In this document: positions 21,159 through 21,416 of the stretch, piece after piece
Position numbering within the stretch: the first letter of the stretch is position 1
How the letters are laid out: every line of letters starts with the position of its first letter
Assembly (NCBI GenBank): GCA_036172245.1
Contig: JAYWIR010000044.1
Location: forward strand, 744,001 to 808,000
DNA length: 64,000 bases
Direction of reading: 5' to 3'
Source: Raillietiella orientalis
Taxonomy: Eukaryota
The notes under the pieces: generated by a model
The model's database searches: none
Seen by the model: only the letters and a program-made list of their open reading frames with translations
Told to the model about the DNA's origin: nothing
Program-made: the position numbers and the translations under genes

Positions 21159-21223
21159 CAGCAATAGCACACTTATAACCGCCCTGGACCTCCACCTATA
21201 ACAATCAGATCATAATCAATCAT
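21159..21223 (-). pseudogene. lpdA: Bacterial dihydrolipoamide dehydrogenase 5' fragment with a +1 frameshift
   Basis: ATG ATT GAT TAT GAT CTG ATT GTT ATA GGT GGA GGT CCA GG(g)C GGT TAT AAG TGT GCT ATT GCT = MIDYDLIVIGGGPGGYKCAIA, the FAD-binding GxGPGGY motif. Truncated after 21 codons. Confidence 0.8.
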
Positions 21224-21416
21224 GAAAAACAAACCTATTTTCTAAAGAATAAACACCATTTCCCTCAGTAGTCACATATATCTTATCATGGGTAAACACT
21301 GGAGCATGAAACACATTACCAGGTATTTCCATTGCCTTTCCTGTGTTTTCAGATCCAGGAAAAGCAAAGATCAGCCCTTTATTACTTGTTACCCACAACG
21401 TATGAGCATTCAGCAT
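21216..21416 (-). pseudogene. Bacterial (Wolbachia-like) PQQ-repeat beta-propeller/BamB-like gene, 3' fragment inserted in host DNA
   Basis: Encodes AHTLWVTSNKGLIFAFPGSENTGKAMEIPGNVFHAPVFTHDKIYVTTEGNGVYSLENRFVFHD*. It is intronless and its last codons overlap the ATG of an lpdA fragment. Resemblance to the Wolbachia protein is from memory, and the 5' boundary is approximate. Confidence 0.75.

Follow-up and report, generated by a model that had tools for sequence, protein, structure and literature searches.

A probable dead nuclear transfer of Wolbachia DNA spanning a bamB-family/lpdA junction

Is the short stretch at 21159..21412 on the minus strand of this window (the whole 64-kb stretch of DNA that was analysed) a nuclear transfer of Wolbachia DNA, or nuwt, and if it is one, could it still serve the genome in which it lies? 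The sequence makes it very probable that we are dealing with a dead nuwt, a single piece of about 255 bp that carries the junction between a bamB-family gene and lpdA. An earlier note had named Wolbachia as the source and had recognised the gene order as that of Wolbachia, and both points are borne out by BLASTP and by blastn across the gene junction. The region that it delimited, 21159-21416, departs by no more than a few bases from the stretch over which homology extends.

For the protein evidence, the open reading frame at 21216-21560 (-) served as query against the longer entries in a set of 5.8 billion proteins. Among the 25 matches listed, all 17 that bear an organism name are from Wolbachia (E down to 1.2e-31); these named matches are BamB-family or PQQ-like beta-propeller proteins of about 369 amino acids, and the remaining matches listed are unnamed or labelled BamB only. 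Each of the listed matches spans only the last 58% of the query, with residues 49-114 of the window ORF aligning to residues 304-369 of the Wolbachia BamB at 85-86% identity (by BLASTP, 57/66 residues are identical to the Wolbachia protein P0003 and 56/66 to P0002). This portion, at 21216..21416 (-), is the 3' end of a BamB-family (PQQ-like beta-propeller) gene and comprises its last 66 codons and the TGA, that is, 66 of 369 codons (18%). By our reading of the protein alignment, 24 of the 25 BamB columns that are invariant within this portion are kept, the sole change being Y368 to H. Profile searches with the same ORF gave only a weak beta-propeller match in Pfam and no match in NCBIfam.

At the DNA level, a contig scan with exact 8-residue words of the window ORF found no relative; an alignment of 18 Wolbachia BamB-family proteins, used as the query, then gave 28 Wolbachia loci, which were fetched with 3-kb flanks. 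The check proposed in the earlier note, one colinear Wolbachia match spanning both genes, came out positive in 25 of these 28 loci and in 55 of the 60 Wolbachia genomes to which one of the loci gave access. In the matching loci, blastn returned one 254-bp alignment (21412-21159) with one gap, at identities of 68-93% and with E down to 2.8e-105, the best being L001 (92.9%), L019 (92.8%), and L010 and L004 (both 91.3%). The three loci that gave no blastn match are L015, whose bamB match goes no further than residue 314, and L026 and L028, whose sequences break off within bamB. Genus-wide, the best match reaches 93%, nearly all matches have the same limits and they always run across the gene junction; these limits also recur in three whole Wolbachia genomes. 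Agreement on this scale lies well outside the reach of chance. Because two genes are spanned colinearly, the insert is an unambiguous marker of donor gene order. In L010, the downstream gene is lpdA (TIGR01350 lipoamide_DH, 502 bits against a cut-off of 408.8), and its start overlaps the stop of the upstream gene, which encodes a 369-aa BamB-like protein; as the latter scores 125 bits with TIGR03300, below the cut-off of 285.2, "BamB family" is the right name for it.

The insert preserves this overlap. Its ORF ends in ...TTT CAT GAT TGA, and the 8 nt ATGATTGA at 21223-21216 (-) are common to the bamB-family stop and the lpdA start, just as the earlier note had described. All nine aligned Wolbachia read ATGACTGA at this point (TAT GAC TGA / ATG ACT GAT): one private change of the insert, C>T (ACT>ATT, 21219), falls within the overlap, and another, T>C (TAT>CAT, 21224), lies one base upstream of it. 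We take the overlap to show that the two genes were adjacent in the donor, and read the pair as a putative operon. Of lpdA (dihydrolipoyl dehydrogenase), only the 5' start is present, at 21159..21223 (-), with 21 of about 468 codons (4%). From 21223 (-) the frame reads ATG ATT GAT TAT GAT CTG ATT GTT ATA GGT GGA GGT CCA GGG CGG TTA TAA, so that a premature TAA at 21175-21173 stops it after codon 16. The additional G that had been noticed in this fragment is indeed present, and in the window alone: the run at 21182..21184 (-) is GGG where all nine aligned Wolbachia have GG, and removal of one G from it gives MIDYDLIVIGGGPGGYKCAIA. Truncation of both genes and the broken frame of lpdA are signs of release from bacterial function, and the insert, in which both genes are fragments, would not qualify as a functional laterally transferred gene. 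Being fragmentary, frame-broken and devoid of a bacterial promoter region, it would therefore encode nothing useful and do nothing.

How much of the difference from Wolbachia arose after insertion is a separate matter. Measured against a 5-of-6 consensus of the six nearest Wolbachia, the insert has 17 private substitutions in addition to the extra G. Four of the substitutions crowd the ambiguous border zone at 21418-21410; of the 13 in the core (21399-21166), 9-10 are synonymous and 10 affect the third base of a codon (binomial P 0.0016); the non-synonymous changes (3-4) are I>M, T>A and Y>H for bamB and T>I for lpdA. This bias towards third positions, together with the retention of nearly all invariant residues, argues that the insert owes most of its divergence to a donor lineage that was still under selection. 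The 7-8% divergence, being mostly synonymous, would thus predate the insertion and not represent decay, and the distance of the relic from the reference genomes gives no measure of how long ago it was inserted. Decay after insertion was probably slight, amounting to at most a few substitutions and the one-base insertion. The earlier note had taken the frameshift as a sign of such decay: the extra G is there, but as part of a homopolymer of three bases it may reflect an error of assembly or sequencing, so that the case for decay consists of one indel and the few non-synonymous changes. In neutral-decay terms, we infer that the insert is young.

The donor can be placed only approximately, because a maximum-likelihood tree (23 rows, 259 columns) gives no well-supported clade that holds the insert. 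The tree was built without L006 (contig end), L023 and L027 (partial or distant matches) and the three loci that had no blastn match. By path, the nearest rows are L001 (0.098), L019, L004 (wPaur) and L002 (0.12), and L014, a strain of Mansonella ozzardi (0.13); the end branch of the insert measures 0.075 vs 0.008-0.025 for the nearest rows. The Penenirmus auritus strain wPaur is described as a member of supergroup F (PMC9903615), and a survey of filarial genomes treats the Mansonella Wolbachia strains as supergroup F (bioRxiv 10.1101/2025.03.17.643741). The earlier note had anticipated a supergroup assignment; the insert lies nearest supergroup-F strains, but outside any supported clade. "Supergroup-F-like" is a fair description of the donor, though not a proven one, and the donor would have been a Wolbachia absent from the reference genomes, to which the insert is at most 93% identical.

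Comparison of the whole window with a complete Wolbachia genome of 1,145,387 bp (blastn with E up to 10, tblastx with E up to 0.1) gave only two significant pieces, the insert and 46936-47192. The latter belongs to another Wolbachia-like piece, unrelated to the bamB/lpdA insert and close to it in length (about 260 bp), at 46936-47198 (+). This piece is part of a class-III aminotransferase gene (Pfam Aminotran_3, E 1e-15), presumably the bioA gene of a biotin operon. Of three Wolbachia genomes compared, two match it at 83% identity and the third lacks it; the borders of the piece in GC-rich host DNA are sharp (39% GC vs 54-60%), and it carries a 7-bp deletion. The biotin operon moves between symbionts, and for this reason the donor of this piece need not be Wolbachia.

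Does the bamB/lpdA piece truly lie in the chromosome? We infer that it does from the assembled sequence, in which it is bounded on both sides by host-type DNA within one molecule. The contrary reading, an artefact of assembly or library in which a chimeric molecule or a mis-joined read from live Wolbachia mimics an insertion, is unlikely. It could appeal to the fact that the only frame-breaking lesion is a one-base homopolymer difference of the kind typical of sequencing errors, and to the private substitutions, which with their excess of third positions resemble those of a living lineage. However, non-Wolbachia DNA stands on both sides within 64 kb of gap-free sequence (no N, one contiguous stretch), two independent false joins 254 bp apart would be needed, and the aminotransferase piece in the same window is equally sharp-bordered and has a deletion of its own. 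The earlier note had held that the frameshift argues against contamination by a live symbiont; that argument loses force if the G is an error, but stronger ones take its place: only about 255 bp are left of the bacterial sequence, and the DNA on either side, in one contiguous window, is unlike Wolbachia.

The borders themselves are sharp. When aligned with their flanks, the sequences cease to be homologous at 21159 beside lpdA; beside bamB, the border may fall anywhere from 21409 to 21417. An 8-nt direct repeat, AGCAATAG, straddles the lpdA-side junction at 21150..21167 (+), with one copy in the host flank (21150-21157) and the other inside the insert (21160-21167). Among 20000 shuffled flanks, 81 had a repeat of at least 8 nt, as did 3 of 629 real 30-mers (21500-25900), which puts chance at about 0.4-0.5% for what is a post hoc observation. 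The junction zone on the bamB side, at 21404..21418 (+), contains the near-tandem GCATTCA/GCATTTCA. When 220 bases from each side were compared with 60 Wolbachia genomes, only poly-T matches and chance-level matches of 16-35 nt appeared (by our own estimate, a search of such size is expected to give about 0.4 exact 18-mer matches), and further Wolbachia scraps in the flanks were accordingly rejected. As far as these searches show, the insert consists of one piece and is no mosaic. Composition offers no independent support for it, because its GC content (38%) lies within the range of its AT-rich surroundings (44% and 35% in the adjoining 500 bases), the whole window standing at 55%.

A more elaborate history, in which the insert belongs to a larger patchwork of joined pieces, or was carried by a mobile element or retrocopy, so that the flank at 21413-21541 (ending in a run of 17 A, +) arrived with it, is very unlikely. 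What gives it some appeal is a 114-codon open frame with an ATG at 21216..21560 (-), in which the 66 bamB codons are preceded, in the same frame, by 48 codons from the non-Wolbachia flank; given the local stop frequency, a stretch of 48 codons would stay open by chance with a probability of about 0.05. The A run, at 21525-21541 (+), lies 112 nt from the border of the insert, and weak inverted repeats are present at 21100-21113 and 21514-21527. Yet nothing in the 60 Wolbachia genomes matches the flanks significantly, whether as DNA or as protein, and within the window they occur only once. A target-site duplication after the A run was looked for and none was seen, nor were direct repeats flanking the insert region, and on these grounds a retrocopy or SINE origin was rejected. 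The flank at 21417-21560 (-) had one match in an exhaustive phmmer search of 1.84 billion proteins, a 597-aa tachylectin-repeat protein with an E of 2.4e-6 summed over four repeats. A single repeat unit, at 34% identity over 35 residues, reaches no better than E 0.04 against the window, which yielded no further tachylectin unit; the likeness may be due to chance or to a lone scrap of another gene, neither of which is proven.

The insert is set in non-coding, AT-rich DNA and follows mRpL34 at a distance of about 1 kb; mRpL34 is a single-exon gene of 68 codons and a stop at 22442..22648 (-) (Pfam PF00468 Ribosomal_L34, E 4.4e-13, profile positions 2-44 of 44). By tblastx, its ORF (22648-22445) shares no more than 44% identity with the rpmH region of Wolbachia, and it is for that reason assigned to the host as its mitochondrial L34 gene. 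The position given for it in the earlier note holds: it lies on the same (minus) strand, with its stop at 22442, 1,025 nt upstream of the insert. The first AATAAA after this stop is at 22224-22219, 221 nt downstream and before the insert; others on the minus strand are at 21565-21560 and, inside the insert, at 21383-21378.

mRpL34 lies in an AT-rich island (35-40% GC, 21-26 kb). The remainder, 1-20000 and 26000-64000, has 50-73% GC in 1-kb windows with a peak at 14-18 kb, which is unusual for an arthropod. A Pfam family was found in only 2 of the 106 longest open frames of the window (at least 150 codons), and the GC-rich bulk looks non-coding. A large exon of glucose-6-phosphate 1-epimerase (Aldose_epim) lies at 35125-35838 (+), 14 kb from the insert, and is of pancrustacean type, with 43-69% identity to the matches listed, nearly all of them insect and crustacean and none closer; it places the host among the pancrustacean arthropods. 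A word-based protein search with mRpL34 gave no candidate and hence no placement of the host. Blocks of strong purine and AT skew (AT skew up to 0.57) occupy 50800-53300 (-) and 63000-64000; they contain open frames of up to 529 codons with no Pfam family, and their weak tblastx matches to the Wolbachia genome (E 0.006-0.07) look low-complexity.

The location on the strand of mRpL34, about 1 kb downstream of it, the ATG-initiated 114-codon ORF, the nearly complete set of invariant BamB residues and the low-level, stage-specific transcription described for some nuwts of Brugia malayi (PMC3849323) might suggest that the insert has been taken into use, as an extended 3' end of mRpL34 or as a translated chimeric ORF ending in the last BamB propeller blade, but this is scarcely credible, since a canonical AATAAA stands well before the insert, one blade of a 369-aa propeller cannot fold like the parent protein, Y368H (the only changed invariant residue) and the T>I of lpdA are what relaxed constraint leads one to expect, and recent insertion explains the conservation more simply. 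That the ORF at 21560-21216 (-), carried on a read-through or alternatively polyadenylated mRpL34 transcript, would amount to a very young chimeric transcript or peptide made from a symbiont scrap can hardly be expected.

For the dead nuwt, then, we propose that a stray fragment of a Wolbachia chromosome was captured in the germline of a pancrustacean arthropod. The most likely route would be its use as filler in the end-joining repair of a chromosome break: the short repeats at both junctions fit such repair with foreign filler DNA. A model of this kind, with non-homologous end joining, has been proposed for numts at chromosome breaks (PMC2567098). As described there, foreign cytoplasmic DNA serves as filler and short repeats or microhomology mark the junctions, which would apply to the insert as well; the donor, however, is here a bacterial symbiont and not a mitochondrion, and the mechanism is read from a single 8-nt junction repeat.

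Among nuwts themselves the insert is in familiar company. They are known in Brugia malayi (PMC3849323) and in 22 filarial genomes, and the survey of the latter counts dihydrolipoyl dehydrogenase among the NUWT genes (bioRxiv 10.1101/2025.03.17.643741). Like the nuwts of arthropods and filarial nematodes, the insert is a fragment of the Wolbachia chromosome in host nuclear DNA, truncated, frame-broken and non-functional, and usable as a fossil of present or past infection. It differs from them in being very small, a single colinear piece of about 255 bp, in having a pancrustacean host with unusually GC-rich surroundings, and in that its integration is read from the assembled sequence.

The insert is an ordinary small nuwt and adds a further case to the known transfers of DNA from symbiont to host. 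Taken by itself it matters little, being just another short, dead relic of Wolbachia among host DNA. Together with the bioA-like piece, it could feed a genome-wide census of which Wolbachia lineage once resided in the germline of this host, and of what that lineage encoded.
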